From an uncultured Actinomycetes bacterium (GTDB taxonomy: Bacteria > Actinomycetota > UBA4738 > HRBIN12): DNA of 64,000 nucleotides. Below the pieces are notes generated by a model, which worked only from the letters and a program-made list of their open reading frames with translations, was not told the origin of the DNA and did not search any database. The position numbers and the translations under genes are program-made. Positions 10,275-29,278 of this stretch are shown piece after piece. The DNA lies in NCBI GenBank assembly GCA_963734275.1, contig CAVTGO010000006.1, positions 15,274 to 79,273 on the forward strand. Direction: 5' to 3'. The stretch's first letter is position 1. Each line of letters starts with the position of its first letter.

Positions 10275-10284
10275 TTGTATACAC
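10275..10284. promoter_or_regulatory. Candidate GntR-type operator TTGTATACAC
   Basis: A/T-rich palindromic core TGTATACA sits in otherwise GC-rich DNA, about 52 nt upstream of the RidA-like start. A CCGGG run is adjacent. Confidence 0.5.
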
Positions 10285-10428
10285 CATCTCGCCTCCATCA
10301 AACCCGGGCCTCTGACCGGCAGAGCGACGAGTGGCGCCCTCTGGATGCATGCAGCCTCCTGCGGCGCGACGACGGCCTCGATCGGCGACGCCGCGTGAAG
10401 ATTCGAACGGTACGGTCAGCTGCAACCG

Positions 10429-11745
10429 CTAGTCGATCAAAGGACGGAGGCGAGCGTCGGCTTCTTGGGACTTCCGGCGGATCTCAGCATTCGAGATCCG
10501 GGTGAGCTCCCGGTCTCGCACGACCACCTCACCGGCGCAGATCACATGACGAACATCGGAGGGCCGTCCGCACCAGACGATCGTATTGAGGAGGTCCTTG
10601 TCGTTGAGGGGGTCTCTGCGGTATGGCTGTAGGTGCAGACCAGTCATGTCCAGGATCGCGATATCCGCAGGGGCACCGACATCGATCAGCCCCGCCCCGG
10701 TGCCCAGGATCGACCCGGCAACCGCTGTCGCCATCTCGAAAACGTCAGCGGAGCTGAGCGCGGTGGGATCCTGGCGTGTGATGCGTTGCAGCATCGCCGC
10801 TGCGCGCATGGCAGCGAACATGTTCAGCTGGAAACCCGAAAGCATTCCGTCCGTTCCCAGCGCCACCTTGATGCCCGCATCTCGAAGATCGACCGCTCGA
10901 CAGATCCCCGATGCGAACCGCATGTTGCTCGTGGGATTGTGGACGACCGAGGTTGAGCTGGCGGCCAGCAGCTCTATCTGCTCATCGGTCAGCCAGTTGC
11001 AGTGAGCCAACAGGGTCCGTGAGGTCAGAAGCCCCGCCGCCGCGAGGCCTTCGGGTTCCGGGGTCCCCCTCTTCTCTGGGAAGGTTCGTATCTCGTACTC
11101 GCTCTCCGCCATGTGGGTGTGGATCCCCAGATCGTGCTCCCTCGCAACGGCTGCCACCTTCCCCATGCCCTCCAAACTCGTCGTCAAGGGGCTGTCGAAA
11201 CCGCACCACATCTGCACGCGCCCACCCTCTGAGCGATAGGAGGTAACCGACTCGAGGGCGGTGGTCAGGTCATCCAGATCACCTCGCTCGACACCACCAC
11301 CGTCGCCGGCAAGGGGGACGATCCCCGCACGGATCCCGAGGGCCTCTGCAGCCATCGCCGCGCCGGTGAAACGCCTCGTCATCGTGACCGCGCTCGTGAC
11401 TCCCGCAAGCAACAGCTCGCCAAGAGCAACCAGTCCTCCCACGAAGGCGTCGTCCTGCGTCATGTGCCGGGATACGAGATCCACGCGGCGGTGCCAATCG
11501 TGGACGGGCATCCCGTCGCTCAACGCTCGTCCCGGCCGGCAGTGGAGGTGCAGGTTCGCAAGTCCAGGGATCGCTACGCTGTCGGAACAGTCCAGGCGAG
11601 TATCGGCTGCTTGCCGGGAGCTGCGAGACTCGTCTATCTCGGCGATCATCCCGTCGGCCACGTAGAGATCGCAGACCACAGGATCTTCGCGAGCTCCGCG
11701 GAGCAGATGCACGTCCTCGAGGACGACGGATCGCATTCCCGCCAC
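10429..11745 (-). CDS. Metal-dependent amidohydrolase (chlorohydrolase/aminohydrolase-like)
   Basis: IPGLANLHLHC (HxH), HMAESEYE, HCNWL and GTDG motifs of the amidohydrolase superfamily. Confidence 0.85.
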   Translation of the reverse strand: MAGMRSVVLEDVHLLRGAREDPVVCDLYVADGMIAEIDESRSSRQAADTRLDCSDSVAIPGLANLHLHCRPGRALSDGMPVHDWHRRVDLVSRHMTQDDAFVGGLVALGELLLAGVTSAVTMTRRFTGAAMAAEALGIRAGIVPLAGDGGGVERGDLDDLTTALESVTSYRSEGGRVQMWCGFDSPLTTSLEGMGKVAAVAREHDLGIHTHMAESEYEIRTFPEKRGTPEPEGLAAAGLLTSRTLLAHCNWLTDEQIELLAASSTSVVHNPTSNMRFASGICRAVDLRDAGIKVALGTDGMLSGFQLNMFAAMRAAAMLQRITRQDPTALSSADVFEMATAVAGSILGTGAGLIDVGAPADIAILDMTGLHLQPYRRDPLNDKDLLNTIVWCGRPSDVRHVICAGEVVVRDRELTRISNAEIRRKSQEADARLRPLID

Positions 11746-11873
11746 GAGATCAACCCCTCATGTCGACTCGGGTCGGAGGACGATATGCCGACATCGCGAT
11801 CGGTGGCAATTCCCGAGTGGATGGTGCGATCGCCCACCAACCGAGCACCATCGGATCGAGGGCATCTCGGAGT

Positions 11874-13418
11874 TCACATGCCTCTCGCGATGCCGTCCTT
11901 GCGGGGATCGGAGGCTCCTACGAAGCCACCCTCGCTCCGCAGGACCATCTGAGCACCACCGGCTTCGAACCGCTTCAGTTCGGATACCTCGTGGCCCCGC
12001 GTGCCGAGCGCCTCCATGACTCGCTGGTCATAGGCAGGTTCGAAGGCAACCGAGCGCCCTGAAGTAAACCGGAACCTCGGGGCTGTTACGGCGGCGGTAG
12101 GGGACATCCCTCGATCGAAGAGGTTTCGTATCACTTGGAACTGACCCTGCGGTTGCATGAACCCTCCCACGACCCCGAGGCAGCCGAAGAACCCTCTGTC
12201 ATCGCCGAGCATCGCCGGGATGATCGTGTGGTACGGCCGCTTGCCAGGCTCGGGTCGGTTCACGTGATCCTCGTCCATGACGAACCCCGCGCCTCTGTTG
12301 TGCAGAGCGATCCCGGTACCCGGCACGACGACGCCCGAACCGAATCCCTCGTAGAGCGACTGGATCAGTGAGCAAGAGATGTCGGTGTCGGCGGTTGCCA
12401 CGTACACCGTGTCGCTCGGGTTACCGGCGTGAGCCCAACCGGCTCGGATCAGATCCACGTGTCTGCGCCTGTCGGCGAGGTACTCGGCGGATAGGAGGGC
12501 CGTCACGGGAACGTCATGGAACCGCATGTCGGTGACGAACCGATCGGCATCGGCGAACCCCATCTTCAAGGACTCGATGGCGAGGTGATCCTCAGCGATC
12601 ACGTCGGGAGACTCGAACCCTTCGTAGATCCCAAGCGCTTGAAGCGTGACCAGACCCTGCCCTGGTGGGGGCAACTCGTACACGTCGAAACCTCTGTAGC
12701 GCAGCCGAATCGGCTGGTCCCATTCGGGGCCCGACCACGAGGCCATATCGCCTGCCCGCATGGGTCCACCGGCCGCTTCCACCGTCTCTCCGATCGCTTC
12801 CCCGATCTCCCCGCGATAGAAGCAATCAGCCCCTTCGTCTGCGATGCGTCTCAGCACCTCACCGAGCGCGGGATTGGCGAATCGGTCCCCTTCCTTCGGC
12901 GCCGTCGCAGCCGGAAGGAAGGTCCGCGCAGCCTCCTCGCTCCCCTGGAGCTTCCCGACGCAGGCTGCCCACTCCTCGGCGACGAAGTGGGCGACCGGGG
13001 CGCCTTCGCGCGCCGTTCGTATGGCCGGATCGAGGATCGCCGCCAGGTCGAGGTTCCCGTGCGTCCTGACCAAGTCCTCCCAGCCGGCAACGGACCCCGG
13101 CACCGTGATCGTCCACGGTCCCGCGGTAGGCATCTGTTGGAAACCCGCTGCGTGGAGAGCCTCCATGGAGAGGCCGGCGGGTGCCGGACCGGCGGCGCTG
13201 AGGCAGACGGGAGCCCCGGCACCTTCGAGCCATACCTGAGCGAAGAGGTCTCCTCCGATACCCGTCGACCTGGGATCCACTACGGTGAGCATCGCGGCGG
13301 CGGCGACAGCCGCATCGACCGCATTTCCACCTCGCTCCCACGCGCCCAGCGCCGCCGAAGCGGCCAGCGGGTGGCTGGTCGCAACCATCCTCGGTGTCCC
13401 GTGGTTCATGGCCATCAC
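11874..13418 (-). CDS. ggt: Gamma-glutamyltransferase-family Ntn hydrolase (paralog 2)
   Basis: ATSHPLAASAALGAWERGGNAVDAAVA; SDTVYVATADTDISC...FGSG; PGKRPYHTIIP. Confidence 0.88.
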   Translation of the reverse strand: MMAMNHGTPRMVATSHPLAASAALGAWERGGNAVDAAVAAAAMLTVVDPRSTGIGGDLFAQVWLEGAGAPVCLSAAGPAPAGLSMEALHAAGFQQMPTAGPWTITVPGSVAGWEDLVRTHGNLDLAAILDPAIRTAREGAPVAHFVAEEWAACVGKLQGSEEAARTFLPAATAPKEGDRFANPALGEVLRRIADEGADCFYRGEIGEAIGETVEAAGGPMRAGDMASWSGPEWDQPIRLRYRGFDVYELPPPGQGLVTLQALGIYEGFESPDVIAEDHLAIESLKMGFADADRFVTDMRFHDVPVTALLSAEYLADRRRHVDLIRAGWAHAGNPSDTVYVATADTDISCSLIQSLYEGFGSGVVVPGTGIALHNRGAGFVMDEDHVNRPEPGKRPYHTIIPAMLGDDRGFFGCLGVVGGFMQPQGQFQVIRNLFDRGMSPTAAVTAPRFRFTSGRSVAFEPAYDQRVMEALGTRGHEVSELKRFEAGGAQMVLRSEGGFVGASDPRKDGIARGM

Positions 13419-13424
13419 CGGCGG

Positions 13425-14837
13425 CTAATCGGACACGAGCCCGTGGATCGGCGGCCGTGCTTCGTGGAAGTCGGTCAAAGCCTGATAGCGAGCTGCGGCC
13501 GATAGCGCCGTGGATTCGTCGCGAGCCACGAACTGCAATCCCAGTGGCAGGCCCTCTGACGAGAAACCGGATGGCACGCTGACCGAAACAAGGCCACACC
13601 AACCGATCGGTCCGGTAGCTCGCAGGACATCGGGAACCAGCGGTCGCGTGTCCTCGAATGAGAGGCCTGCCGCAGGCTGAGCGGGTGCCGCCCTTCGAGC
13701 CGCTTCTTCGAACGTGGGGGCTGAGCGGATCGCTGTGGGCACCAACACGACGTCGACCTCGTCGAAGAGCCCGAGGAACTGTTCGCCCAGGCCCTGGAGT
13801 TTCCGCCGGGCGAGCACGAGATCCGCTCCCGTGATCGCCTCGCCTTTGCGAAGGAACGCAGCAGTGTCCTCGGAGTATCGGTCTGCACGCTGCGGGAACC
13901 AACCGGCCTCTTGGTGGAGGGCGAGCATATCCGAGACGACCACCATCTTCCTGGGCACATCCCACTCCCTGAATGGTGCGAGCTGAACGTCGTGGGGACG
14001 AGCTCCCTCGGCCTCCAGGACCTGGGCCGCACGGTAGGTGGCTTTTTCAACCTCCGGTTCTACTTCGAGGATCGTCTGCAGAGGATGCAAGATGCCGATG
14101 TCCATCCCCGAGATAGGCAAGCTCGTGCTCACTTCGGCATCGGCGGCGATGACACGCCATACGAGGGCGAGATCCACCGCGCTGCGAGCCATCGGACCGC
14201 ACGTGTCGTGGGTCCACGAGAGAGGGATGATCCCCTCTGTCGGAACAGAGGCGATACGTGGGCGCAACCCACTAACCCCGCAGAACGCGGCCGGCACCCT
14301 GATCGATCCTCCGCTATCGGTGCCGAGCGCGGCTAGACACTCGCCGGCCGCGACGGCTGCGGCGGAGCCGCCGCTCGAACCGCCCGGGATGCGACTGGGA
14401 TCCCAAGGGTTACGCGTCGGGGGAGTCGTGATCCCAGCTGCGAACTCGTGCGTGGTGGTCTTGCCGATGATCAGCGCCCCGGCCTCTCTCAGCCGTTTGA
14501 CGACGGGAGCATCTTCGGGGATCGGCTCATCATCAAGGACGTGTGAACCCGCGCGGGTGGGCATCCCTTCGACATCGATCATGTCCTTGATCCCCATCGG
14601 GATCCCATGCAGCGGGCTCCGGGGGCCGCTTCTCCGGAGTTCCACGCTCAGCGATTCCGCGTCCCGAGAGGCACGTTCCGCGTCGATGAACGCGAATGCC
14701 CTCACCGTCGGCTCTACCTGCGACATCCGTGAGAGGCACGCCTCGAGGAGGTCGTGGGGAGAGAGTGCCCCTTCCCGCATGGCGTTGGCCGCGTCCTCGA
14801 GAAGGAGGTCGGCTGATCGCTGCATGGGATCAGTCAC
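13425..14837 (-). CDS. Amidase-signature family amidase
   Basis: GGSSGGSAAAVAAGE amidase signature and upstream GIPMGIKD. Confidence 0.9.
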   Translation of the reverse strand: MTDPMQRSADLLLEDAANAMREGALSPHDLLEACLSRMSQVEPTVRAFAFIDAERASRDAESLSVELRRSGPRSPLHGIPMGIKDMIDVEGMPTRAGSHVLDDEPIPEDAPVVKRLREAGALIIGKTTTHEFAAGITTPPTRNPWDPSRIPGGSSGGSAAAVAAGECLAALGTDSGGSIRVPAAFCGVSGLRPRIASVPTEGIIPLSWTHDTCGPMARSAVDLALVWRVIAADAEVSTSLPISGMDIGILHPLQTILEVEPEVEKATYRAAQVLEAEGARPHDVQLAPFREWDVPRKMVVVSDMLALHQEAGWFPQRADRYSEDTAAFLRKGEAITGADLVLARRKLQGLGEQFLGLFDEVDVVLVPTAIRSAPTFEEAARRAAPAQPAAGLSFEDTRPLVPDVLRATGPIGWCGLVSVSVPSGFSSEGLPLGLQFVARDESTALSAAARYQALTDFHEARPPIHGLVSD

Positions 14838-14982
14838 AGCACGCTCCCCCGGCCCACAGCCCTCCGCGGCGCGCCTGAAGAAGGAGCTCGGAGCGAGCGC
14901 GATCCATCACCCGCGCTCGCTCCGTCACCCCTGACCCGACGCCGCTGACGACCAATGAGCTGGCTTGGGATGCGACCAGACG

Positions 14983-16116
14983 TCATCCACCCAGCTCGGA
15001 CACGTCCTCAACCGGACCGCCGAGCATCTCGGTGGCCTGCTCTGCTGGGCCCGGGTCCACCAGATCCTCATACGCCAGCGACAGGGCCGATTCCTCCAGG
15101 AGACCCGAGTCGACGAGGACCTGGATGTCCGTCGTGACGATCTCCTCGGCCAAGGCACTCGCGTCGTAGGGCCATACACCGTTCGTTCGACTGAACTCCC
15201 AAACCGCTCTGGTGAGCTCCACATCCGGCTCGAGAGCGCTCATCTCCGTGGCCCACTCCAGATACATATCGAAGTCGCCTGCGAGGGTTCGGGTGGAATG
15301 CAGGACCATGGCGCAGAACGCGGCGGCTCTGGCAGGGTCCTCCTCGATCCACTCGGTCTTCGCGATGAAGACGCTGCCAACCGCACTATCGATGTCCTGG
15401 GCGGTGACGCTCAGCACGTTGACGTCTGCCTCGTCGCCGAGCTGCTTCGTCAGAGCTTCTTGTTCGAAGAGATCCAGTGAGCCGACATTGATGTCACCTG
15501 AGGCAAGCGCGGCAAGCCGCAGACCACCATCCTCGAGGATGATCACGTTCTCGAGATCGTCAACGGTGAGAGGTTCGCCCGCGTCATCGGTAAGGCCTCT
15601 CGCGCGAAACACATGGTTCATCAGATAGTTGATGAGCCCGCCGGGGCTGTCGATGCCAACACGGATATCGGGATCCGTGATGTCGGCTATGTCGCTGATC
15701 CCGACTCCCATCAGATGCTCGAGTGTGTCTACCTCTTCCGGACAGAAGGCCTTCACATCCTGTCCTTGTTCCACCAGCTGCGGAACGACGATGAAGGTCG
15801 CTTCGAGGACGTCGGCTTCCCCCGAGAAGAAGAGCTGAGTAGCCGTTGCGTGCGACTCGACGGCCTGGATATCGCCTTCGTCCTGGTCGGGGAAGCCGAA
15901 ATCAGCACCGAATCTCCAGGCTCCCGCCTGAGGAACTTTGTCTTCGACCCCGCTGCTTGAGAGCACGATCTTGACCTCGCCGTAATTGGCTTCGCCAGCA
16001 ACCGTGTCCCCCGTAGCACTGGGGTCGTCTTCATCGCCGCCGCATGCGGTCGCGATGAGAACCAGCACTGCCGCCACAGCCAGCAGTTTCGGGGCTCGAC
16101 CTCGCTCAGCCATCAT
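14983..16116 (-). CDS. ABC transporter substrate-binding lipoprotein (NitT/TauT, NMT1-like)
   Basis: Lipobox LIATACGG. It sits in an operon with NitT/TauT-type permeases and ATPase. Confidence 0.75.
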   Translation of the reverse strand: MMAERGRAPKLLAVAAVLVLIATACGGDEDDPSATGDTVAGEANYGEVKIVLSSSGVEDKVPQAGAWRFGADFGFPDQDEGDIQAVESHATATQLFFSGEADVLEATFIVVPQLVEQGQDVKAFCPEEVDTLEHLMGVGISDIADITDPDIRVGIDSPGGLINYLMNHVFRARGLTDDAGEPLTVDDLENVIILEDGGLRLAALASGDINVGSLDLFEQEALTKQLGDEADVNVLSVTAQDIDSAVGSVFIAKTEWIEEDPARAAAFCAMVLHSTRTLAGDFDMYLEWATEMSALEPDVELTRAVWEFSRTNGVWPYDASALAEEIVTTDIQVLVDSGLLEESALSLAYEDLVDPGPAEQATEMLGGPVEDVSELGG

Positions 16117-16208
16117 CTCTCCTCCCGCTCCAGAGGGGCCAACTCGCAGGGCACTCCCGAGACTCCATTCCCGCTAACGAGCCCCAGGCCTCATTCCGCT
16201 GACGGCTC

Positions 16209-16967
16209 TCATACCCCCTTCCATCTCAGAAGCCACCATTCAACGGCTCGGGCGATCAACATCGTGCCGGCCGCGACAACGGTGATGAAGAACACGGCGC
16301 CAAGCAGGACTTCCAGGTTGAAGGAGCTTGCAGCATTCACGATGTAGAGACCGAAGTTGTCAGCACGAAGGAACAGGTCGGCCAGGATGGCTCCCTGGAC
16401 GGAGCGCCCCAGCCCCAGCCTCAGCCCTGTGAGGATGTATGGACTCGCCCATGGGAAGATGATCTTCCGGTACATGCCTCCCCGTGTCACCCCGAAGGAC
16501 CGAGCCATCTCCTTGACATCCGAAGGCACTTCTCTGACGCCGGTCGACGTATTGACGATGATCACGAAGATATTCATGAGAACCGTCAGGAGGATCTTTG
16601 CCGTGGTTTCCAGCCCGGCGTAGATCGAGATGATGGGGATGAACATGACGATCGGCACCGCCCAGCCCGCACTCACCAACGGATCCACCACCCACGACCA
16701 TTTCACCGATACCCCGGTGAGGGTTCCGATGGTCACTCCAAGGGTCGCGCCGACGATGAACGCCCCGACCGCCACGCGCAGTGTCCCGAGAGCCGCCGTG
16801 AGGATCTCTCCGTGGAGGATCTCGTCCCACAGGGCCGGCAGGACCGCACTCGGGGGCCTGACGTAGAAGAGCCCACCAACCGTGCCGAGGGCCTGCCAGA
16901 TGAGGAAGAATGCGAGTATGGAAGTGATCCATCGGGCGATCTGCTTCCAATTGATCCGTCGCCTCAT
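16209..16967 (-). CDS. ABC transporter permease (NitT/TauT type)
   Basis: Six-TM permease-like translation with an EAA-like loop (EMARSFGVTRGGMYRKIIFPWASPYILTGLRLGLGR). Confidence 0.85.
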   Translation of the reverse strand: MRRRINWKQIARWITSILAFFLIWQALGTVGGLFYVRPPSAVLPALWDEILHGEILTAALGTLRVAVGAFIVGATLGVTIGTLTGVSVKWSWVVDPLVSAGWAVPIVMFIPIISIYAGLETTAKILLTVLMNIFVIIVNTSTGVREVPSDVKEMARSFGVTRGGMYRKIIFPWASPYILTGLRLGLGRSVQGAILADLFLRADNFGLYIVNAASSFNLEVLLGAVFFITVVAAGTMLIARAVEWWLLRWKGV

Positions 16968-17827
16968 GGTATGAGGCCCTCGGCTTCCTGGGCTTCCATC
17001 CGAGCGTAGGGCCGCAGGCGCCGTTCCAGCGCCTTCAGCGCCTCGTTGCTGCCAACCCCCAACGCAGCGATCATGAGCGCGATCGCGAAATACGTGTCCA
17101 GCATCCGAAGGGAGCCGCTCTCCACGAGTAACCTTCCGGTGCCGGAGACGATCCAGATCTCGGCGATCACGAACCCCTTGAAGGCCATCCCCAGTCCCAG
17201 CCTGGCTCCCGCCACGACGAAGGGAGCAGCAGCAGGCAGGTAGATCTGCGTGAACATCCTCCGTCGTGTCGTGCAGAACGCTTGGGCCGTTTCAACGAAC
17301 TTCTGATCTACGAACCTCACGCCGGCGGCCGTATTCATAACAGGGAAGAAGAAGGCGAACAGGATGACAACGGCAACGCGGTATCCAAGCTGAGTACCGA
17401 AGGCGATGACGAACAACGGGATCAGTGATTCCTTGCTGGTGACGAACAAGGTGTTGACCCATGGCGAGAAGAAGTCATCAACCACGTGGAAGCGACCCAT
17501 GAGAGCTCCCAAAGGGATGGCGACGACGAGCGCCAATAGATACCCGATGATCATCTGCCGAAGGGATTCCAGGAGCGTCCAGTAGTAGCCGTTCGCGAAC
17601 GCGTCGCCTATCCCGAGGGCCGTTGCTTGCAGCGTGGGGGCGTAGAAGGGTCCCTTGACGATCGCGACGATCTGCCACAGGACGAGAGCTCCCCCCCATA
17701 CCAGCAGTCGCAGCATCCACTTCGTCGAGAGGGCGCGCCTCAAGCGAGACTGGCTCGGGACCCGAAGAGCGCGGTTCTGGTTGCCCGCTCGCAGCTTCGC
17801 CTTGGCCTTCGTGAGCGAATCAGCCAA
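16964..17827 (-). CDS. ABC transporter permease (NitT/TauT type); start uncertain
   Basis: EAA-like loop ETAQAFCTTRRRMFTQIYLPAAAPFVVAGARLGLG. TTG 17827 overlaps the ATPase stop. The ORF to 17953 would overlap the ATPase by 130 nt; ATG 17716 is an alternative. Confidence 0.75.
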   Translation of the reverse strand: MADSLTKAKAKLRAGNQNRALRVPSQSRLRRALSTKWMLRLLVWGGALVLWQIVAIVKGPFYAPTLQATALGIGDAFANGYYWTLLESLRQMIIGYLLALVVAIPLGALMGRFHVVDDFFSPWVNTLFVTSKESLIPLFVIAFGTQLGYRVAVVILFAFFFPVMNTAAGVRFVDQKFVETAQAFCTTRRRMFTQIYLPAAAPFVVAGARLGLGMAFKGFVIAEIWIVSGTGRLLVESGSLRMLDTYFAIALMIAALGVGSNEALKALERRLRPYARMEAQEAEGLIP

Positions 17828-18617
17828 GCTGTTGCTCCCCGTTCCTCCCCGCAGCCCCTCCGCTCTTGAGCTCCTCCCACACCGTTTGCTTGAGCCGAGC
17901 GAATTCGGCTTCTCCGCGGAGTGCGTCCGTCCGAGGCCGGCCGAACGGGACATCGAGCATCCGGATGATGCGACCAGGTCTTGGGCTCATGACCACGACA
18001 AGATCCGACAGGAACAGCGCCTCTTCGATGTCATGCGTGACGAAGATGACCGTCCTGTGATCGCGTTCCCAGATCTGAAGAAGTTCCACCTGAAGCAACA
18101 TGCGGGTTTGATCGTCAACCGAGCCGAAAGGCTCGTCCATGAGCAGGATCTCGGGCTCGATGGCAAGCGCGCGAGCGAGACCGACTCGCTGCTGCATACC
18201 CCCAGAGAGCTGGGACGGATAGTAGGTCTTGAAGTCCTCGAGCTCGACCACTTCGAGCCAATGCTGGGAGCGCTTTCGCCGCTCCTCCTTGTCGACGCCG
18301 AGATTCTCCAAGCCGAACTCCACGTTCCCCAGAACGGTCCGCCACGGTAGGAGGTTGAAGTGTTGAAACACGAACCCGCGATCGAGTGACGGGCCTCGCA
18401 CGGGGATATCTCCTATCTTCACCGACCCTGCTTTGGGCGCGATGAGACCATCGATGATCCGAAGCATCGTTGACTTTCCACATCCACTCGGACCCACGAT
18501 GCTGCAGAAGACTCCGGGCTCGAGAGTCAGGCTGACATCGTCGAGGACATGGATGGTGCCGGACCCACTCGTGCTGAAGGACATGTCCAAGCCGTCGATC
18601 TGCACGCTGAGCGTCAT
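17820..18617 (-). CDS. ABC transporter ATP-binding protein (NitT/TauT type)
   Basis: Walker [10 protein letters not shown], signature LSGGMQQR, Walker B ILLMDEP. Confidence 0.92.
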
Positions 18618-18676
18618 GTGTGTTTCTCCCCATTCCCCCGGATGCTCGGGCTTGGTCCATCCACGGTCGGACTCGG

Positions 18677-19765: not shown

Positions 19766-19819
19766 GACATACGTGGGCTAGGCAAGCCCACCGATACGTG
19801 CACGAGCCACATGCGCGGA

Positions 19820-19829
19820 TTGTATACAA
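19820..19829. promoter_or_regulatory. Candidate GntR-type operator TTGTATACAA (perfect 10-bp palindrome)
   Basis: Lies in the divergent LLM/LLM intergenic region, about 54 nt upstream of the 19765 start. CCCGGG follows. Confidence 0.55.
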
Positions 19830-19882
19830 CCCGGGTCGTTGCCTGTCAAGCGGAGGAGGCGGGGCGGGCTGGAACCACGAGA

Positions 19883-19892
19883 TTGTATACGA
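19883..19892. promoter_or_regulatory. Candidate GntR-type operator, imperfect (TTGTATACGA)
   Basis: Same intergenic region, 63 bp from the perfect site. Confidence 0.4.
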
Positions 19893-20082
19893 TGCTCGGA
19901 GAATGCTTCGGTCGCAACCGGGTCCCCACAACCGAGGTCGCTGCTTCCTTTGCGCGAGAAACCTGTTCGCTTTCGACGCGCCACCCCGCACACCAACGCT
20001 GGCACTGACCGCCTTCCAGAGCGGAGACGGGCCAGCATGACTGGTCCAACTCGAAGCGCAAGGTTGTGACCATGGAGGGCCT

Positions 20083-21069: not shown

Positions 21070-22229
21070 GCATCGACCGCGCCTGGATGGAGCGTTTCTT
21101 GGTCGATCTGTTGCGCGCAGATACTCAGGTTCCGCTAGGAGAAACGGAGCTGGCCCCCGGCGATGCGAGGATCGTGAAGGCGATCGATGACGTGGTGATG
21201 CCTTCTATCGAGGAACTGCAACCCGATGAGGTTCGGCGTCATGACTTGGGAGACGTGGCTGTTCGCTTCGGTCCCGAGGGTGCCGACGGGCTCCTCATCC
21301 AGACATACATCGTCTCGCAGCATTCCAACCTCATGGACGATCCCAACGTCGGAACCATCGCCGACGGAGAGCTCTACGGTCTCTCCGGACCATGCGGGGT
21401 TGGTCAGGGAGCGACTCAGAACAAGGGTCCGATGGCGAGCGCGATCGCCGCGGTCCGTTCGCTGCCTCGAGATCTCAAGCAGCCCGTGTGGATCGCCGTC
21501 AACGGTGAGGGCAGGAGCTCGCACGATGGATCACGGCGCGTCATCGACGATCTGCGCCTCCGCGCCGCTCACGGGATCGTCGCCTTCGGAACGGATCTGC
21601 GCGTCTCGCTCGGCAACCGAGGGCGCGTTGACATCGAGGTTTCCGTGCGAGGTCGCTCATGCCACTCCAGCCAACCGTGGTTGGGGCTCAATCCGATCGA
21701 GGGCGCCGCGGATGTGGTCCGCGCCCTCCGGTCGGTGTCTCTGCCGGAAGCCCATCCCGAGTTGGGCGGAGTGACGATCACTCCGTACCAGGTGCGTTGT
21801 TTTCCCGTGGCCCCCCACACCATCCCGGAGAGGGTGGATATCGTCATCGATCGTCGTCTCCTCCCCGGGGAGGACCCCTCGACCGTCATCGACGACCTCC
21901 GTTCTCATCTCTCGGATGAGCAGATTGCGGAGGTTGACGTCGAAGGGGGAGCGTCGATGCTGCCGGCGGCGGTTTCCCCCGACTCACGTGTGGTGCGGCA
22001 CTTGCTCGAGGGCCTCACGTCGCAAGGACGGAGGTCGGAGACGTTCTGGAGTCTCAACACGTTCGATGCGGGTTACGCATGTTCCGTCGGCATTCCCACG
22101 CCGATGTTCGGTCCCGGGAAGCGCGACTTCACGGGTGAGGGTCTCGTGGGGACCGACGCGATCTCTGTCGATGACTGTGAAGCCGCTGCGGCCACGATCC
22201 TTCACGCGGCCATGGCGCTCTGTTCGTAG
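21066..22229 (+). CDS. M20-family metallohydrolase (ArgE/DapE/ACY1-like deacylase)
   Basis: M20-like translation. The GTG start overlaps the upstream stop (GTGA). Confidence 0.75.
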   Translation: MSIDRAWMERFLVDLLRADTQVPLGETELAPGDARIVKAIDDVVMPSIEELQPDEVRRHDLGDVAVRFGPEGADGLLIQTYIVSQHSNLMDDPNVGTIADGELYGLSGPCGVGQGATQNKGPMASAIAAVRSLPRDLKQPVWIAVNGEGRSSHDGSRRVIDDLRLRAAHGIVAFGTDLRVSLGNRGRVDIEVSVRGRSCHSSQPWLGLNPIEGAADVVRALRSVSLPEAHPELGGVTITPYQVRCFPVAPHTIPERVDIVIDRRLLPGEDPSTVIDDLRSHLSDEQIAEVDVEGGASMLPAAVSPDSRVVRHLLEGLTSQGRRSETFWSLNTFDAGYACSVGIPTPMFGPGKRDFTGEGLVGTDAISVDDCEAAAATILHAAMALCS

Positions 22230-22260
22230 GGCAGCGAAGAAGAGATCTCGGGGGCGAACC

Positions 22261-23271
22261 GTGCGATTCGGCTTTGCGCAGATCCTCAGCGAGGACTTTC
22301 GAAAGCACGTCGGGCTCGTGAGATTCGCGGAGGAGCTTGGGTTCGATCACGCATGGATCACCGACCAGACGTTCTATCGCGATCCCTACGTGATCCTGGG
22401 GTTGGCCGCTCAGGCCACCGAACGGATCGCGCTTGGGATCGGGGTTACCAACCCCTACACGAGACATCCTGCGATGACCGCGAGAGCGGTCGCGACCTTG
22501 CATGAAGCCGCGCCCGGCCGGATCCACCTCGGGATCGGCGCAGGCAACCGCCGGGAGCTCCTGAGTCCGCTGGGGATCGATGGCTCCCACGATTCCGAGC
22601 GCTGTCGGGAAACCCTCGAGATCGTTCGCCGCCTTCTTACCGGCACGATGACGACCTACGTGGGCGATCATTATGGCGTTCGAGATGTCGAGCTTCGAAC
22701 GGCTGCGGCGCCGGAGGTCCGCTTGTATATCGGGGGCCGTGGCTCGCGCATCCTTCAGGCTGCGGGCGAAGTGGCCGACGGAGTCATCATCGGTGGACTG
22801 TCTACCGCCGCGGGCATGCGCTATGTATGGGATCACGTCGGCGCTGGAGGGAAGCGCGCGAAGCGCGACCTCGGTGAGTTGGAAGTCGTCTGCTGGATCA
22901 GCTGTTACCTCACCGAGCGCCCTGCGGCCAAACGCGAGGCGATCAAACCGTGGATCGCCCACTTCGTCGGTGAGGCACCTCGTGGAGTATTGGAGGCCAT
23001 CGAGGTGTCGGACGGGGTCGTGCAAGCGATCAAGTCGATGTATCTGCAGGGCGGCAGCACCGCGGCCGCCCCGTACGTTACCGAGGAGTGCATCGACGCC
23101 TTCAGCTTGATCACGGAGCCCGACAAGGGGGCAGATCGGATCGATGCTCTGAGCCGGGCGGGGGTGACGCAGTTCTGCATGCTGCTACCGATCGGGTCGG
23201 TCGACGACCACCGAAAGCAGCTAGAGGAGTTCGCCGAAGTCGTCTTCCCCAGATTCGCCGACAAGCGTTAA
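22261..23271 (+). CDS. LLM-class oxidoreductase (methylene-H4MPT-reductase-like)
   Basis: From GTG 22261: VRFGFAQILSE...LGFDHAWITDQTFYRDPY...GIGVTNPYTRHPAMTA. The longer ORF from 21916 overlaps the M20 gene and is Arg-rich. Confidence 0.8.
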   Translation: MRFGFAQILSEDFRKHVGLVRFAEELGFDHAWITDQTFYRDPYVILGLAAQATERIALGIGVTNPYTRHPAMTARAVATLHEAAPGRIHLGIGAGNRRELLSPLGIDGSHDSERCRETLEIVRRLLTGTMTTYVGDHYGVRDVELRTAAAPEVRLYIGGRGSRILQAAGEVADGVIIGGLSTAAGMRYVWDHVGAGGKRAKRDLGELEVVCWISCYLTERPAAKREAIKPWIAHFVGEAPRGVLEAIEVSDGVVQAIKSMYLQGGSTAAAPYVTEECIDAFSLITEPDKGADRIDALSRAGVTQFCMLLPIGSVDDHRKQLEEFAEVVFPRFADKR

Positions 23272-23505: not shown

Positions 23506-23555
23506 GACATCCCTCCTGATCGGACGACACCGTTACTCTACGCATCGAGGGTTGG

Positions 23556-24809
23556 TCATTCCCGATCCCTTTCAAGAGGGTCGGCCCCGGGCGGTACGCC
23601 CTTCATTTCTGCCTGACCTTCAGTCGTTGACGAGGATCGCAGCTCGTGATCCAACCTGCGCAGCGGAGACATCATCGGAGCAAGGGCAACGCCCACAACG
23701 GCCATGACCAGAAAGGCCACTTGCAGGGAGGAAGCGGCGACGCACGCCGCGACTGCGACCGGCGATGACAGCTTGCCAAGGTTCCGAGCCGTTTGACTGA
23801 CGGATACCATGCCAGCGCGCAGGTGCGACCTGGCGGTGTGACTCGCGTACATGTCCGAGAGGACCGCCAGCACCCCATCCCCGACCCCGTAGATAGCAGC
23901 GCCGGCAAGTGCCCACCGCCAGTCTGGGGCAAGAGCGAAGACGACGATGGAGGTCGCGATCCCTAAGAAGCTTCCTAGGACCGCCGCGGACGGGCGAACC
24001 CTTCGGATGATCGCGGGGACTCGCGTAGTCGTCAGAAGGGTGACGACAGCGGCCAGAGATATGACGAGCCCCACCTGCGTCACGGAAGCATCCCGTTCCT
24101 TGACGAGGAGGATGGGAAGGTAGCCAAGCATCACGAACTTGAAGAAGAAGCGGCCGAACTGCGCAAGGAGAGTCGTCGACAGGCTAGGTTCGGTACGCAG
24201 TACGCGAGAGAGGTCTCGAGCGTAGTGCCGTTCTCCACCCAGATACGTGCGCGACTCGTCCATGATCATGAAGGACAGGATGGCGAGCGGGATCGTCACG
24301 GCCTGCATGAAAAGAGGAGCCCTCCATGAGATCCCCACCACCAAAGCACCCACGATGGGCAGAACGACGTCGCCGGCGGCGAGGAAGGAGTTCCTCCCGA
24401 CGAACGCTCGGATCCTCTGGGGCCCGCTGAACTCCGCCCCTAACAGGGTGATCGTCAGCGGCAGTACCGCCGCGAAACAGCTCCCCTGAACGGCTCGCAT
24501 CGCTAGCAGCAGCGGAAAGCTGGTGGTGATCCCCTCGATGATCGCCGCAACACCGGAGGCCGTGAGAGCGACACAGAAGAGAAGGCGTCTCCCGACAAGG
24601 TCCCCCAGGATGCCCAGCGGAACAGCGAGGAAGACGCCCGGAAGTACGTAGGCCGTGGTGACCAACCCGATCCGGCTGTCGCTGAGCCCGAGCTGGCGCT
24701 GCAATTCGGGGAGGGCGGGCGCCACAGCTTGGATCCCAAGGGTCATCCCGACGCCTCCCAACGAGATCACCGCTATGAAGGTCCTCGGGCCGACTCTCCG
24801 GACCGTCAT
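23556..24809 (-). CDS. MFS transporter
   Basis: 12-TM-like hydrophobic profile and the MFS loop motif GDLVGRR. Confidence 0.85.
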   Translation of the reverse strand: MTVRRVGPRTFIAVISLGGVGMTLGIQAVAPALPELQRQLGLSDSRIGLVTTAYVLPGVFLAVPLGILGDLVGRRLLFCVALTASGVAAIIEGITTSFPLLLAMRAVQGSCFAAVLPLTITLLGAEFSGPQRIRAFVGRNSFLAAGDVVLPIVGALVVGISWRAPLFMQAVTIPLAILSFMIMDESRTYLGGERHYARDLSRVLRTEPSLSTTLLAQFGRFFFKFVMLGYLPILLVKERDASVTQVGLVISLAAVVTLLTTTRVPAIIRRVRPSAAVLGSFLGIATSIVVFALAPDWRWALAGAAIYGVGDGVLAVLSDMYASHTARSHLRAGMVSVSQTARNLGKLSSPVAVAACVAASSLQVAFLVMAVVGVALAPMMSPLRRLDHELRSSSTTEGQAEMKGVPPGADPLERDRE

Positions 24810-24923
24810 CGATGGCTCCGCGCCGGCATGAGGAGCGTCCTTCTTGTCGATGCCCTACAGAGTGGCTGACCAGTCGATGGACTCGGGGTGCGGCGAACTC
24901 ACGACGTTCGATCACCTCAAGTT

Positions 24924-25847
24924 CTACGCAACTGCCTGGACGCGGAACGTGTCACCGACAGAGATGCCGAGCTCAGTGGCGAGATCCCCTGCCGGCTCCT
25001 TTTCGCGTCGTTCACCTCGCATGCGTCCGACAAGAACTGCCCCACCATGCGCGGCAACGACTACTCCCTCACCTGAGATGGCGAGCACTTCACCTGGTTC
25101 CCCATGGCCGTCGACCAGCGCGGCATCGAAGATATCCACGCGCTTCCCCTTGATGGTGCCCCACGCTCCGGGCGCGGGGTCGGCCGCACGGATCTTGGCG
25201 AAGACGTCGGCGATCTGTTGATCCCAATCGAGCTCCGCGATCGACTTGTCGTACCAGGACTCGTAGGAACCGGCGTCGAGATCCTGCCCGTGCTTGAGGA
25301 GCACTCCCGCCTTCACCAGGTCGAGGCTCTCCATCATCGCGTCCACACCCATCGGGAAGAGCTTCTTGAAGTAGACGTCTCCGACGGTCTCGCTCGGTCC
25401 GATCTCGCAGGTCTTCTGCAGCAAGATCGGTCCCTCGTCCAAGCCTTCGTTTGGCCAGAAGATGGTGAGCCCCGTCATCGTGTCTCCGACGGAGATCGCC
25501 CAGTTGACCGAGGAGGGCCCTCGGTGCAGCGGGAGCAACGAGGGATGGTATTGGAACGTGCCGAACCTGGGCGCGTTCAGGACCGGCTCAGGCACAGGCA
25601 GCAGGACGTACGCCATCATGCAGATGTCTGCTTCCAGGGACTCCATCAGCTGCAGCGCCTCCGGAGTCTTCCAAGACGTCGGCAGGTACAAGGGCAGGCC
25701 CGCCTCTCTCGCGAGAGCAACGAGCGCGTCTTCTCCGGCTTCGCCTTCCGGTGCAGAACAGACCGCGACGACGTTGTCGCCACGATGCAACAACCTTTCG
25801 AGCACCGCCTTACCGAAGGCCCGCTGGCCGTGAACGACTAGCCGCAT
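24924..25847 (-). CDS. Formyltransferase-family protein (Fmt / 10-formyl-THF-utilising fold, N- and C-terminal domains)
   Basis: FQYHPSLLPLHRGPSSVNWAI and TGLTIFWPNEGLDEGPILLQ match the formyl_trans_N catalytic core (N..H..D pattern). Confidence 0.8.
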   Translation of the reverse strand: MRLVVHGQRAFGKAVLERLLHRGDNVVAVCSAPEGEAGEDALVALAREAGLPLYLPTSWKTPEALQLMESLEADICMMAYVLLPVPEPVLNAPRFGTFQYHPSLLPLHRGPSSVNWAISVGDTMTGLTIFWPNEGLDEGPILLQKTCEIGPSETVGDVYFKKLFPMGVDAMMESLDLVKAGVLLKHGQDLDAGSYESWYDKSIAELDWDQQIADVFAKIRAADPAPGAWGTIKGKRVDIFDAALVDGHGEPGEVLAISGEGVVVAAHGGAVLVGRMRGERREKEPAGDLATELGISVGDTFRVQAVA

Positions 25848-25964
25848 GACATCTCCCTCTCAGGGTGTGCACACTGCTGCTGTGACCAGCCGGATCCGCG
25901 GTTCGCGCTGTGATCCTCCGCGGATGCCGCTCCTGCCCATCGCGCGTCGTGGCGCCTCCCGTGG

Positions 25965-27242
25965 CTACTCGGTCACCATGGGCGGTGGTTCGCCAACAGC
26001 ACCGGATGCCTTGATCTCCTGGAGCTCGCTCTCGGAAACACCGAGCACATCACTGAGGATCTCGTCCGTGTGCTCGCCGAGCAACGGGGCCCGCGCTACT
26101 TCCGTCGAGCTATCTGAGAGCTTGATGGGATTCCCCACAGACACGTACGTACCCCGCTTCGGATGCTCCACCTCGACGATGGTGCCGGTCGCGCGCAAAG
26201 CCTCGTCCTCGGCGAGTTCCTTCATCGAAAGAACCGGCCCGCACGGGATATCGACCGCGCTACATATGTCCATCACCTCGAACTTCGTCTTGGTCTTGGT
26301 CCACCCCTCTATCTCGTCGAATATCTGAGCAAGCTTGTCCAAGCGAGCGGCCGGAGTTGCGTACCCTGGATCGCTGACCCACTCGGGCTTCCCGATCACA
26401 TCGCAGATCTTGTCCCAGACCGGTGCTTGGGTGATGAAGTACACGTAGGCGTTGGGGTCGGTGTCCCATCCCTTGCACTTGAGGATCCATCCAGGCTGGC
26501 CTCCTCCGGAATCGTTCCCTGCCCTCGGTACTGCCTCATCGAATGGGATACGGCGGCCGAATTGGCTGTATTCCCTGAGAGGCCCACGTTCCAGTCGCTG
26601 CTGATCGCGCAGCTTGACCCGGCACAAGTTCAGCACGCCATCCTGCATGGCCGCTTGCACCCTCTGGCCGCGCCCTGTGATCTGGCGTTGGAACAGCGCG
26701 ACAACGATCCCGAGCGCCAGGTTCAGTCCCGTGCCGGAATCAGCGATCTGCGCACCCGAGACCGTGGGTGGTCCATCGAGAAACCCGGTCGTCGACGCGG
26801 CACCGCCCGCGCATTGGGCGATGTTCTCGTACACCTTGTACTCCTGATACGGACCTTGGCCGAATCCCTTCACCGATGCCATGATCATCCGTGGGTTCAG
26901 CTCTTGGATGCGCTCCCAACCGAAACCCATGCGGGCAAGCGCGCCCGGTGCGAAGTTCTCGACCAGCACGTCGCAGTGCTTCACGAGACGTTCCAAGATC
27001 TGCTTACCGGTCTCGTTCTTGGTATCGAGCGTGATGGAGCGCTTGTTGTGATTGAGCATCGTGAAGTAGAGACTGTCCACGTCTGGGATGTCGCGGAGCT
27101 GTGCCCGCGTTGCATCCCCTACCCCGGGTCGTTCGACCTTGATGACGTCTGCCCCGAACCAGGCCAGCAGTTGCGTGCATGCTGGCCCTGACTGGACGTG
27201 GGTAAAGTCGAGGATGCGAACGCCGGTGAGTGCCTTGTCCAT
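25965..27242 (-). CDS. frc: Formyl-CoA:oxalate CoA-transferase
   Basis: Long stretches match my recollection of Oxalobacter Frc: [126 protein letters not shown] 27242 has GGAGGA upstream. Confidence 0.9.
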
Positions 27243-27347
27243 CCTGTCCTCCAGCACATTCTCGTGGTTGTCCCAGTGCGCCCATGATCGGTCGTGATCG
27301 CGACCCTTCGAGTACGCGTCATCGGCGTGAGGGTTGCGCGTGTCCGA

Positions 27348-29093
27348 TCACTTGTACATCGTTTGCGCCTTCGTGCCGGGGGCGTACTCGCGAGGGTCAA
27401 CCCAGATATTCACTACGGCCGACTTGCCGGTCTTGTCGATCTGTTGTCTGGCACGTTGGAGAGCAGGCTGGATCTCAGCAGCCTCGCGCACCTCTTCGCC
27501 GAAACCACCGAGCATCTCCGCGAAACGTGAGAATGGCACGTCGCCGAGCTGGTTGCCGACGCTGCCGCGCTCTTCGCCGTACTTCGAGATCTGTCCATAT
27601 CGGATCTGGTTCATCGCCGAGTTGTTGCCGATGACCGCCAGGAAGGGGGCGTTGAAGCGATTGGCGGTCTCGATGTCGAAGGCCGTCATTCCGAAGGAAC
27701 CGTCTCCGTAATAGCAGAGCACTTCCTTGTGTGGGTGCGCCAGCTTTGCCGCCAGCGCGAATCCGGTCCCAACTCCGAGCGACCCGAGCGCGCCCGGATC
27801 CATCCAGCCGCCAGGCTGGCGTGGGCGAACGGCCTGTGCCGAGATGGTAACGACATCACCACCATCCCCGATATAGATCGTGTCCTCGATCATGAACTCG
27901 TTGAGCTCGTAGGCCACACGATATGGGTGGATCGGTGACGCGTCGGATCTGAGGAGGGGCATGATCCTCTCGAGGGCGAGCGCCTCAGCCTGACGAAGCT
28001 GCTCCATCCACTGCTTGCGTGCGAGGCGCTTGTCCTCATCGATCATCTCGGAGGCCGCCTGGAGTACTGCACCCAGGATCGCACCTGGATCGCCGACGAG
28101 ACCCAATGAGATGTCACGGTTCTTTCCGACGGTTCGATAGTCCCGGTCGATCTGGACCAATATCGCGCCGTCGGAGATGCGCTTGCCGTATCCCATGCGG
28201 AAGTCGAACGGCGTTCCCACGACCACGATCACGTCGGCGTCCTTGAAGGCCATCGAGCGTGTGCGGTCGAAGTGATGCTCGTCTCCGGGAGGGAGCAGAC
28301 CTCGGCTGGCTCCGTTGAAGTAGCCGGGGATGTCGAGACCGCGCAGCAGAGCAACCGCTTGCTCATGGCCGCGCGAGATGAAGACCTGTTGCCCGTAGAG
28401 GGCAGCGGGCCGCTCGGCGTTGACCAGGATCTTGGCCAGTTCCACGATGTCGGCCGGGTCGCCCACAGACTTGACGGAGGCTCGATAGGCCCCCGGCTTC
28501 GGGATGACGGCCTTGTCGATCGGGATCTCACGGTCGAGCACGTCGCGGGGGATCTCCAAGAAGGACGGTCCGAAGGCCCCGCTGAAGCACTCGCGTGCTG
28601 CCATGGAGACCATGTCGGCGATGCGTTCGGTCGAGGGAACGGTGGAGGCGAACTTGGTGATCGGCCTCATCAGGTCTACATGCGGAAGATCCTGCAAGGA
28701 ACCCATCCTGTGCTGAGTGAGCGCTCCCTGGCCGGCGATATGGAGTACGGGACTCTCCGAACGGAAGGCCGTTGCGATCCCAGTGACGGCGTTCGTACAG
28801 CCGGGTCCGGCAGTCGTGACGACGCAGCCCAGGCGGCCCGTCTGGCGTGCGTAACCATCGGCTGCGTGGGCAGCTACTTGCTCGTGGCGGACGTCCACGA
28901 TGCGGATGCCTTCGTCGATGCACCCGTTATAGATGTCGATGATGTGTCCACCGCAGAGCGTGAAGATGGTGTCGACGCCTTCATTCTTCAGCGCCTTAGC
29001 CACCAGCCGACCGCCCGAGACGACGTCACCGCGCGTGCCGTTCCTTGCGAGCGATCCTTCGGTCGTACTCGAAGTGGCCCGCTCCCGTGACAT
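27348..29093 (-). CDS. oxc: ThDP-dependent decarboxylase, probable oxalyl-CoA decarboxylase
   Basis: Acetolactate-synthase-like ThDP fold (RHEQVAAHAADGYAR, TAGPGCTNAVTG, GDGSFG...NNS ThDP motif). It lies immediately upstream of frc in the same operon. The product assignment rests partly on this context. Confidence 0.75.
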   Translation of the reverse strand: MSRERATSSTTEGSLARNGTRGDVVSGGRLVAKALKNEGVDTIFTLCGGHIIDIYNGCIDEGIRIVDVRHEQVAAHAADGYARQTGRLGCVVTTAGPGCTNAVTGIATAFRSESPVLHIAGQGALTQHRMGSLQDLPHVDLMRPITKFASTVPSTERIADMVSMAARECFSGAFGPSFLEIPRDVLDREIPIDKAVIPKPGAYRASVKSVGDPADIVELAKILVNAERPAALYGQQVFISRGHEQAVALLRGLDIPGYFNGASRGLLPPGDEHHFDRTRSMAFKDADVIVVVGTPFDFRMGYGKRISDGAILVQIDRDYRTVGKNRDISLGLVGDPGAILGAVLQAASEMIDEDKRLARKQWMEQLRQAEALALERIMPLLRSDASPIHPYRVAYELNEFMIEDTIYIGDGGDVVTISAQAVRPRQPGGWMDPGALGSLGVGTGFALAAKLAHPHKEVLCYYGDGSFGMTAFDIETANRFNAPFLAVIGNNSAMNQIRYGQISKYGEERGSVGNQLGDVPFSRFAEMLGGFGEEVREAAEIQPALQRARQQIDKTGKSAVVNIWVDPREYAPGTKAQTMYK

Positions 29094-29244
29094 ACGCTCC
29101 CCTCGCCGGTGGGTTCGTGACGACGATTGTGTCAGGGCGCCGCCCAGGTCCGTGACCTGCTCGTGCCCTGGAGGTCGGCCGCAACGGAGAGCTGGCTCGC
29201 GACCCGATCAGGCCCCCACCGCCGCCGACACCACCGGTCCAGAA

Positions 29245-29254
29245 CTGTATACAA
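29245..29254. promoter_or_regulatory. Candidate GntR-type operator CTGTATACAA (site 1 of a tandem pair)
   Basis: About 150 nt upstream of the oxc start, between oxc and the GntR gene. ACCCGG follows. Confidence 0.5.
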
Positions 29255-29268
29255 ACCCGGGGTCAGGA

Positions 29269-29278
29269 CTGTATACAA
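29269..29278. promoter_or_regulatory. Candidate GntR-type operator CTGTATACAA (site 2 of a tandem pair)
   Basis: Identical 10-mer 24 bp from site 1. Confidence 0.5.

Follow-up and report, generated by a model that had tools for sequence, protein, structure and literature searches.

We analysed a stretch of 64,000 nucleotides from an uncultured Actinomycetes bacterium (assembly GCA_963734275.1, contig CAVTGO010000006.1, positions 15,274 to 79,273), in the following called the window, in which a short palindrome with the core TGTATACA recurs in the promoter regions of a gene cluster that also encodes a regulator of the GntR family. Our survey of the source genome for sites of this palindrome and for GntR genes covers the 64-kb window. 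The regulator gene is located directly upstream of a unit encoding a thiamine pyrophosphate (TPP) enzyme and a formyl-CoA transferase (frc), and the palindromes, named S1 to S5 as candidate operators, are found in front of this unit, of a RidA-like gene and of genes encoding luciferase-like monooxygenases (LLMs). The regulator, the candidate operators and the four putative target units are:

29433..30128, minus strand: predicted regulator of 231 amino acids with a GntR winged helix-turn-helix (wHTH) domain and an FCD domain, VanR group, as derived from Pfam, the start of an orthologue and fold matches
10274..10285: S1, ATTGTATACACC, 52-63 nt 5' of the start codon of the RidA-like gene, with the minus-strand -10 hexamer TACAAT inside
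19819..19830: S2, ATTGTATACAAC, top score of the position weight matrix (PWM), 54-65 nt 5' of the start codon of the minus-strand LLM gene
19882..19893: S3, ATTGTATACGAT, in the divergent LLM/LLM intergenic region, about 190 nt upstream of the plus-strand LLM start at 20083
29244..29255: S4, ACTGTATACAAA, 24 bp downstream of S5 in gene direction, at about +10 to +20 of the predicted promoter
29268..29279: S5, ACTGTATACAAC, overlapping the predicted -10 element (TATACA/TACAGT) of the TPP-frc promoter
9734..10222, minus strand: Target 1, a monocistronic RidA/YjgF-like gene (Pfam)
10429..19765, minus strand: Target 2, genes for an F420-type LLM, an ABC ATPase, two permeases, a putative binding protein, an amidase, a GGT-family hydrolase and a TRZ/ATZ-type amidohydrolase (Pfam/NCBIfam)
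20083..23271, plus strand: Target 3, genes for an LLM, an M20 peptidase and a further LLM, divergent from Target 2 (Pfam)
23556..29093, minus strand: Target 4, genes for an Oxc/HACL-family TPP enzyme, a formyl-CoA transferase, an Fmt-like formyltransferase and an MFS transporter (Pfam/NCBIfam)

An earlier note on this DNA had placed five copies of the palindrome in only three promoter regions; all five were found there, and the distances to the start codons as well as the 24-bp spacing of the tandem pair given in that note are correct. The exact core TGTATACA is present in four copies, at 10276, 19821, 29246 and 29270, against an expectation of 0.01 from dinucleotide-preserving shuffles, in agreement with the claim that well below one chance copy of this 8-mer is to be expected per window. 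The fifth site, S3, shows one mismatch to the core (TGTATACG at 19884). For the hexamer GTATAC, five copies were observed in the 64-kb window versus 1.19 expected from dinucleotide-preserving shuffles, every one of these copies being one of the sites S1-S5 and none residing in coding DNA. The sites are confined to three intergenic regions. The intergenic DNA of the region 6261-31214 amounts to 2197 bp (8.8%) and has a GC content of 64.7%, hence it is not AT-rich; composition-matched shuffles of this DNA yield 0.2 copies of GTATAC, and the probability for all copies being placed in intergenic DNA is about 1e-5 or less. A 16-nt PWM built from the five window sites assigns scores of 20-24 to S1-S5 and at most 8.2 to any other position of the window; in random Markov windows, values up to 10-16 occur. 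The gap between S1-S5 and the next position therefore defines a discrete class with exactly five members and no further weak sites.

The extended consensus of the sites is A-(T/C)-TGTATAC-(A/G)-A-(C/T), written AYTGTATACAR(T/C), constituting a palindrome of 10-12 bp in which the G of TGT is kept in five of five sites. S4 and S5 are arranged in tandem with a spacing of 24 bp, and S2 and S3 are separated by 63 bp, i.e. about six helical turns. Scanning the window for exact and one-mismatch matches, as the earlier note had proposed, revealed besides the five intergenic sites a sole further match, TGGATACA at 29984, which is located in coding DNA inside the GntR open reading frame (ORF) and is at chance level. 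An extended duplicated element around the sites was rejected, as their likeness stops after about 15 nt. The CCCGG/CCGGG run described as a companion of three of the five sites is nominally unusual (P about 2e-4, with the definition made post hoc), but it shows a variable register, is conserved in none of the examined orthologue sites and is probably not a part of the operator; the CCGGG run assigned to 10270-10274 is actually positioned at 10269-10273. A literature search with the exact 10-mers turned up nothing but sequences from cloning and primers.

Read on the gene strand (minus), every site contains a TANNNT hexamer, either TACAAT or TACAGT, and three sites are preceded by a -35 box:

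10296..10301, minus strand: -35-like box TTGATG of the RidA promoter, found in the promoter scan as TTGATG-16-TACAAT at S1
19844..19849, minus strand: perfect -35 box TTGACA of the LLM/ABC/amidase/GGT unit, 17 nt upstream of TATACA at S2
29293..29298, minus strand: -35-like box TGGACA of the TPP-frc promoter, 17 nt upstream of TATACA at S5

For S3, a convincing -35 box was sought on both strands and none was found, and S4, 24 bp downstream of S5, is without a -35 box of its own. The symmetry of the palindrome is clearly broken only at position +/-3, where the left A is invariant and the right T is present in one of five sites, and it is here that the -10 hexamer has its final T, suggesting that the operators are superimposed on -10 elements. 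The consensus matches and their spacing at S1, S2 and S5 would fit such a superposition. The leader of the TPP gene (29094-29243) is unusually long, with about 145-170 nt from the predicted promoter to the start codon, and comparable distances of ~215-227 bp are found in two loci of other genomes, L098 and L099. An Rfam scan of 7-33 kb, including this long leader, revealed no known RNA family. Between the stop codon of the GntR gene and S5 we observed a weak terminator-like hairpin with a T-poor tail (GGGCGCAGTGACCGCCC, 29340-29356, minus strand), which would part the regulator transcript from the TPP promoter.

The start of the regulator at 30128 (MAQER...) corresponds to M58 of the long ORF and agrees with the called start of an orthologue with 86% identity in locus L005. 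Pfam assigns PF00392 (E = 3.9e-16) and PF07729 (E = 7.5e-27), and the AlphaFold (AF2) model, with a predicted local distance difference test score (pLDDT) of 91.6, shows an N-terminal H-H-H-beta-beta arrangement and FCD helices at 80-218. The nearest solved relatives by sequence are PmiR (7xp0), 3c7j, 7u5q and Atu1419 (6z74, E = 1e-12), and Foldseek returned PmiR, 7u5q, Atu1419 (VanR; including the DNA complex 6za3), AlkR (VanR), TM0439 and McbR as top matches of the model, with FadR and LldR ranking far lower. As judged from the predicted fold, the regulator is a member of the VanR group, in which the FCD domain is shorter and lacks both the extra helix of FadR and the domain swap, and is not FadR sensu stricto. 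From the earlier classification as a GntR/FadR regulator, the GntR/FCD assignment thus stands by PF00392 and PF07729, and FadR proper has to be replaced by the VanR group.

Residues E38, R49, T50 and R53 align with the DNA contacts Glu34, Arg45, Thr46 and Arg49 of Atu1419, the SRTPVREA helix being identical in both proteins, and N137, H141, H183 and H205 align with the Atu1419 metal site formed by Asn137, His141, His192 and His214. The DNA-contact residues and the putative metal-site residues are both invariant in 32 clade members. In this alignment, the conserved contact residues show compatibility with the Atu1419 precedent and not specificity for this operator, and the presence of Asn/Asp plus three His residues would place the regulator with the metal-binding FCD type represented by Atu1419, TM0439 and PS5454. 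A scan of the genome contigs with the regulator yielded only paralogues of 27-36% identity. When metagenome contigs were scanned with the clade alignment, the generic stretch LGVSRTPVR dominated the result, and the relatives with 31-40% identity obtained thereby, mostly of low GC content, are usable as an outgroup only. In the literature search we found no paper on this regulator clade or on a GntR-controlled TPP-frc operon in actinobacteria, and none linking GntR, oxalate/frc and Streptomyces.

The closest precedent for the DNA element is provided by Atu1419 from Agrobacterium fabrum (PDB 6Z74, 6ZA3, 6ZAB), whose three identical binding sites, ATGTATACAT palindromes, are located over -10 boxes in two promoter regions, with the G at position 3 (of TGT) being essential and the tetramer being capable of bridging two sites (PMC7797058). 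The 8-bp core TGTATACA is identical to the core within ATGTATACAT, in both cases a local catabolic cluster has several palindromes in two or three of its promoter regions, and both proteins combine a wHTH with an FCD domain in which the Glu/Arg/Thr/Arg contacts and the Asn plus three His site align. In contrast, Atu1419 is with 24-26% identity not an orthologue, and its neighbour genes are unrelated, belonging to hydroxycinnamate catabolism. The outer operator positions are A...T in Atu1419 and T/C-T...A-A in the window, the wing tip carries Gly66 in Atu1419 and His70 in the window regulator, and the site spacings are 190 and 109 bp compared to 24 and 63 bp.

For the FadR subfamily, the operator signature (N)yGT(N)xAC(N)y has been quoted (PMC7797058). 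The GntR/FadR-subfamily system of Bacillus subtilis resembles the window in its short GT...AC palindrome, the dimeric wHTH, the repression of a local catabolic operon and the relief by a metabolite, the last three of which are predicted for the window; it differs in that the protein belongs to another clade, the window regulator being of the VanR group by its modelled fold. In B. subtilis, TTGTATACAA is part of the gnt operator. The window sites do not conform to the FadR consensus TGGTNxACCA. PmiR from P. aeruginosa (7XP0) and the Brucella GntR protein 7U5Q, both FCD proteins sensing carboxylates, are the top matches of the regulator by sequence and fold (E = 2e-21, TM-score 0.74-0.85), although their identity to it is 28-29%. 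PmiR is reported to recognise quite different DNA and to show direct competition between effector and DNA (PMC9728974).

Close relatives of the regulator are few, with identities of 86%, 69% and 52% followed by a series of 44-49%, and nearly all of them are metagenomic. Ten orthologue loci were scanned using the PWM from the five window sites alone, which resulted in 18 matches in 13 kb of intergenic DNA versus 9 matches in 124 kb of coding DNA (19-fold; Fisher P = 7e-13), and composition-matched shuffles of the intergenic DNA gave 1.2 +/- 1.1 matches with a maximum of 7. Most of the matches adjoin the regulator gene itself, and in seven of the ten loci the intergenic DNA immediately next to this gene carries sites:

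L008: sites on both sides of the regulator gene, upstream and downstream
L091 and L094: a pair, 20 bp apart, in the divergent OCD/GntR region
L092: a pair, 11 bp apart, downstream of the regulator
L095: sites on both sides of the regulator gene, upstream and downstream
L096: a weak site upstream of the regulator
L097: a site at the 5' edge of the called regulator gene

The mid-distance orthologues (44-52% identity) carry the motif beside their own gene and upstream of neighbouring operons. Further sites in the orthologue loci are located upstream of NMT1-type ABC importers and of GGT, OCD and TauE genes, and these gene families overlap with the families of the window cluster. Also among 80 distant relatives (31-40%), 13 matches were found within 330 bp upstream of the regulator gene compared to 1.95 expected (P = 1.6e-7). 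As to the gene context of the orthologues, L005-L007 show a GntR-GGT operon, with an insertion sequence remnant upstream in L006. In L091 (5824-11099) and L094 (6222-10899) the regulator orthologue resides beside a Rut-like set composed of two alpha/beta hydrolases, an isochorismatase, an FMN reductase and an LLM monooxygenase, joined with a GTP cyclohydrolase II/DHBP synthase and an IclR regulator.

The motif recurs at the promoter of TPP-frc units in other genomes. The TPP enzyme of the window is 78-83% identical to proteins from Alpha- and Betaproteobacteria and 63-66% to those from Streptomyces and Nonomuraea. A PWM match within 300 bp upstream of the TPP gene was found in four of four actinobacterial TPP-frc loci of the plasmid collection (chance about 1e-6), and in proteobacterial TPP-frc loci in none of two. 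The actinobacterial sites are:

Streptomyces sp. BHT-5-2: ACTGTATACAGT, the only GTATAC in 34 kb, inside a 20-bp perfect palindrome
S. fungicidicus: ACTGTATGCAAT, 50 bp from the TPP start codon
S. rimosus: ATCGCATACAGT, upstream of the TPP gene
Nonomuraea: CCCGTATACAGT, upstream of the TPP gene

In three of the four actinobacterial replicons the record's best homologue of the window regulator (~37%) is encoded 7-16 kb away, and in two Streptomyces replicons (L099, 7458-9185; L103, ~6638) ACTGTAGACGAT precedes a ~37% GntR homologue. In BHT-5-2 the ~37% homologue is divergent from fdhD, and in L099 it is divergent from an fdhD/narQ-family gene; this neighbourhood suggests a link of the regulator clade with formate metabolism. 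The TPP-frc promoters of the Streptomyces loci L099 (24690-24730, minus strand) and L102 (17900-17935) have in common a conserved block of the form cctggaca...gagggataac...ttCATACAGTATtcgtcgACTGTAT(A/G)CA(G/A)T, in which a second, inverted-order ATAC..GTAT element is positioned beside the palindrome.

The closest TPP homologue on a long contig (83%, L104) is embedded in the same gene order as in the window, GntR-TPP-frc-Fmt, and TPP-frc-Fmt behind GntR is present in L105 as well. As the gene order in L104 is the same but the GntR protein is a different one, the operon is common and the regulator lineage differs. The divergent sucC/GntR region of L104 contains a 7-3-7 palindrome, TGGCATAttgTATGCCA, at 8838-8857, which is probably the operator of this unrelated GntR protein. 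With a 30% identical GntR protein and a different palindrome, L104 was dropped as an informant on the operator of the window.

The existence of the sites, their non-randomness and placement, the family and fold of the regulator and the co-occurrence of the motif with the regulator clade are our observations, from which we infer binding, repression, the extents of the operons and the transcription start sites. Taken together, we consider it likely that S1-S5 are operators of a VanR-group GntR/FCD repressor encoded at 29433-30128, which would control a local regulon of four gene sets from the -10 regions of three to four promoters. The proposal of the earlier note that one adjacent GntR-family regulator ties together the RidA, the LLM and the TPP (oxc)-frc units is thereby supported at the level of sequence by the motif in the orthologue loci, its recurrence at TPP-frc, the Atu1419 precedent and the finding that no other GntR gene, although sought, is present in the 64-kb window. 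Several points weigh against this assignment. The closest orthologues (86%, L005; 69%, L006/L007) and L089 (46%) show no site adjoining the regulator gene, and the regulator gene of the window itself, in contrast to those of most orthologue loci, is not preceded by a site and shows no sign of autoregulation. The 89-bp promoter region of the OCD-GGT pair (8857-6261) is without a site, though OCD and GGT are typical neighbours of the orthologues. L104 combines the gene order of the window with a GntR protein of only 30% identity and a different palindrome, and the DNA-contact residues are common across much of the GntR family, so that they do not discriminate between paralogues.

The lack of nearby sites in L005-L007 would also fit a situation in which the operators are real but bound by another regulator encoded elsewhere in the genome, e.g. 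an FCD/GntR paralogue whose recognition helix is the same, the adjacent GntR being coincidental or controlling something else. The recognition helix SRTPVREA is indeed common to many GntR proteins, in Streptomyces and Nonomuraea the nearest regulator homologue is 7-16 kb off the TPP-frc site, and S. fungicidicus has the site and no regulator homologue within 27 kb. Nevertheless, we regard this as unlikely, as the motif flanks the regulator gene in seven of ten orthologue loci, which is unexpected for an unrelated regulator, as ribosomal and other promoters of the same loci and the remaining ~40 kb of the window are without the motif, and as the window contains no second GntR gene. The TANNNT hexamer on the gene strand of every site, with the last T being invariant and breaking the symmetry at +/-3, and the -35 boxes at proper spacing for three sites could alternatively point to a shared promoter element (-10/extended -10) read by a particular sigma factor and not to a repressor site. 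However, the half-sites (T-GTA and TAC-A) are symmetrically conserved even where no TANNNT is present in gene direction (L091 at 4943; L008 at 10731), S4 is placed 24 bp past S5 without its own -35 box, the motif follows the regulator clade and not promoters generally, and the identical core is a proven GntR operator in Atu1419, all of which makes this explanation very improbable. Both readings overlap in any case, since an operator on the -10 element is the classical repressor layout. That the repeats arose by chance or as copies of a duplicated or mobile sequence and have no regulatory role is hardly conceivable: S2 and S4 do share CCCGGGTT(T)GTATACA, and a mononucleotide model permits about 5 GTATAC in 64 kb, but with dinucleotides taken into account 1.2 copies of the hexamer and 0.01 copies of the 8-mer are expected, all copies are intergenic, the similarity between sites is over after about 15 nt, and the motif is found at equivalent positions in unrelated genomes.

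For the repressor encoded next to the sites, we propose a mechanism in which the dimer would put one winged-helix domain on each half-site, Arg49 reading the G of TGT. The predicted operators are positioned over the -10 element (S1, S2, S5), just downstream of it (S4) or six helical turns from another operator (S3), and due to this placement at or near the -10 elements a bound repressor would occlude RNA polymerase. At the pairs S4-S5 (24 bp) and S2-S3 (63 bp) the repressor could probably bind cooperatively or as a dimer of dimers. It would be released by a small-molecule effector bound in the FCD domain with its predicted metal site (Asn137/His141/His183/His205); that this effector is a carboxylate such as oxalate is a guess. 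The release would co-induce the uptake and amide-hydrolysis/F420-LLM set, the RidA-like gene and the TPP-frc-formyltransferase-MFS operon of oxalyl/formyl-CoA metabolism. This operator-regulator logic is textbook and, given the structural precedent for the TGTATACA core, presents no new principle. It provides a concrete and testable regulon for an otherwise unannotated, almost wholly metagenomic regulator clade, and it predicts the same operator type to govern TPP-frc operons in culturable Streptomyces and Nonomuraea.

Of the gene calls made earlier, RidA-like, LLMs, ABC importer, amidase, GGT, amidohydrolase, frc and GntR/FCD agree with Pfam, whereas oxc does not hold at the equivalog level: the TPP gene (27348-29093) reaches 217.9 bits on the Oxc equivalog NF006721/PRK09259, below the cut-off of 557, and likewise 434.8 versus 587 on PRK05858 and 334.9 versus 600 on the actinobacterial 2-hydroxyacyl-CoA lyase. 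The frc gene (25965-27257) scores 706.5 bits on TIGR03253, above the cut-off of 504.2, and therefore encodes a true formyl-CoA transferase. An 81%-identical TPP enzyme in Phyllobacterium has frc and an annotated oxlT as neighbours, a context which suggests an oxalate-related role for the TPP gene. Target 4 thus resembles the known oxc-frc(-oxlT) clusters in its true frc and in this relative of the TPP enzyme, and differs from them in the TPP enzyme being under the Oxc cut-off and in the presence of the Fmt-like formyltransferase within the operon. The latter protein (24924-25847, minus strand; 13210-14136 in L104) contains PF00551 and PF02911, is below all equivalog cut-offs and is encoded directly after frc in the window and in L104-L106; formyl transfer to another acceptor is one possibility for its function.

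Target 2 extends from the F420-type luciferase-like oxidoreductase (18677-19765) to the TRZ/ATZ-type amidohydrolase (10429-11745) and is assumed to be a single transcript from 19765 down to 10429. Its internal gaps of 92-146 bp contain no motif and only weak terminator-like hairpins, and the terminator scans, with 11 hairpins versus 7.9 expected, do not separate operon boundaries. The 377-amino-acid protein of this unit has no Pfam match and is probably the ABC binding protein. In Target 3, the longest ORF of the third LLM (21916-23271, plus strand) shares about 310 nt with the M20 gene, and the Pfam domain of this ORF begins at residue 126; a true start near 22229-22290 is probable. For the LLM, amidase, amidohydrolase, M20 and RidA genes, no assignment at the equivalog level was obtained from NCBIfam. 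We obtained no specific support for the idea of the GGT-family gene encoding an HpxW-type oxamate amidohydrolase feeding oxalate to frc, the best PDB match being 2nlz ("cephalosporin acylase" type) and HpxW (5hft) matching much more weakly.

The block at ~6000-30000, inside which the whole putative regulon resides, has a G+C content of 0.61-0.64 compared to 0.67-0.70 in the flanks, and its third-codon-position GC is 0.72-0.80 versus 0.84-0.95 further right. The nearest relatives of TPP, frc and Fmt are proteins of alphaproteobacterial type (83/80/65% in L104), and the block may be a horizontally acquired island. The F420-LLM/amidase/GGT/ABC set being tied to an oxalyl/formyl-CoA operon gives a hint of a metabolic connection. 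A more far-reaching reading, which we regard as rather doubtful, is that the regulon represents an undescribed catabolic route on a lower-GC, possibly acquired island, combined with one carboxylate-sensing VanR-type GntR switch. In such a route an imported nitrogenous amide-type compound would be processed by the F420-type LLMs, the amidase, the GGT-fold hydrolase, the TRZ/ATZ amidohydrolase and RidA, and the product, oxalate or a 2-hydroxyacyl/oxalyl-CoA, would be converted by way of formyl-CoA by the TPP-frc-formyltransferase operon. If this were true, the TGTATACA operator upstream of TPP-frc would be conserved in oxalate/formyl-CoA metabolism across Actinomycetota.

Further regulators of the window are a LuxR-family protein with a MalT-like TPR region and an HxlR-like protein, encoded left of the cluster within 2694-5116 on the minus strand (2.7-5.1 kb), and right of the cluster a protein with a LigD primase-polymerase domain is encoded at 35307-36602 on the plus strand; no association of the motif with the LuxR/TPR, HxlR-like and LigD-domain genes was found. 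A second GGT-family gene (6261-7835, minus strand) overlaps the OCD/mu-crystallin gene (7832-8857, minus strand), and both form an apparent operon divergent from an SDR gene.

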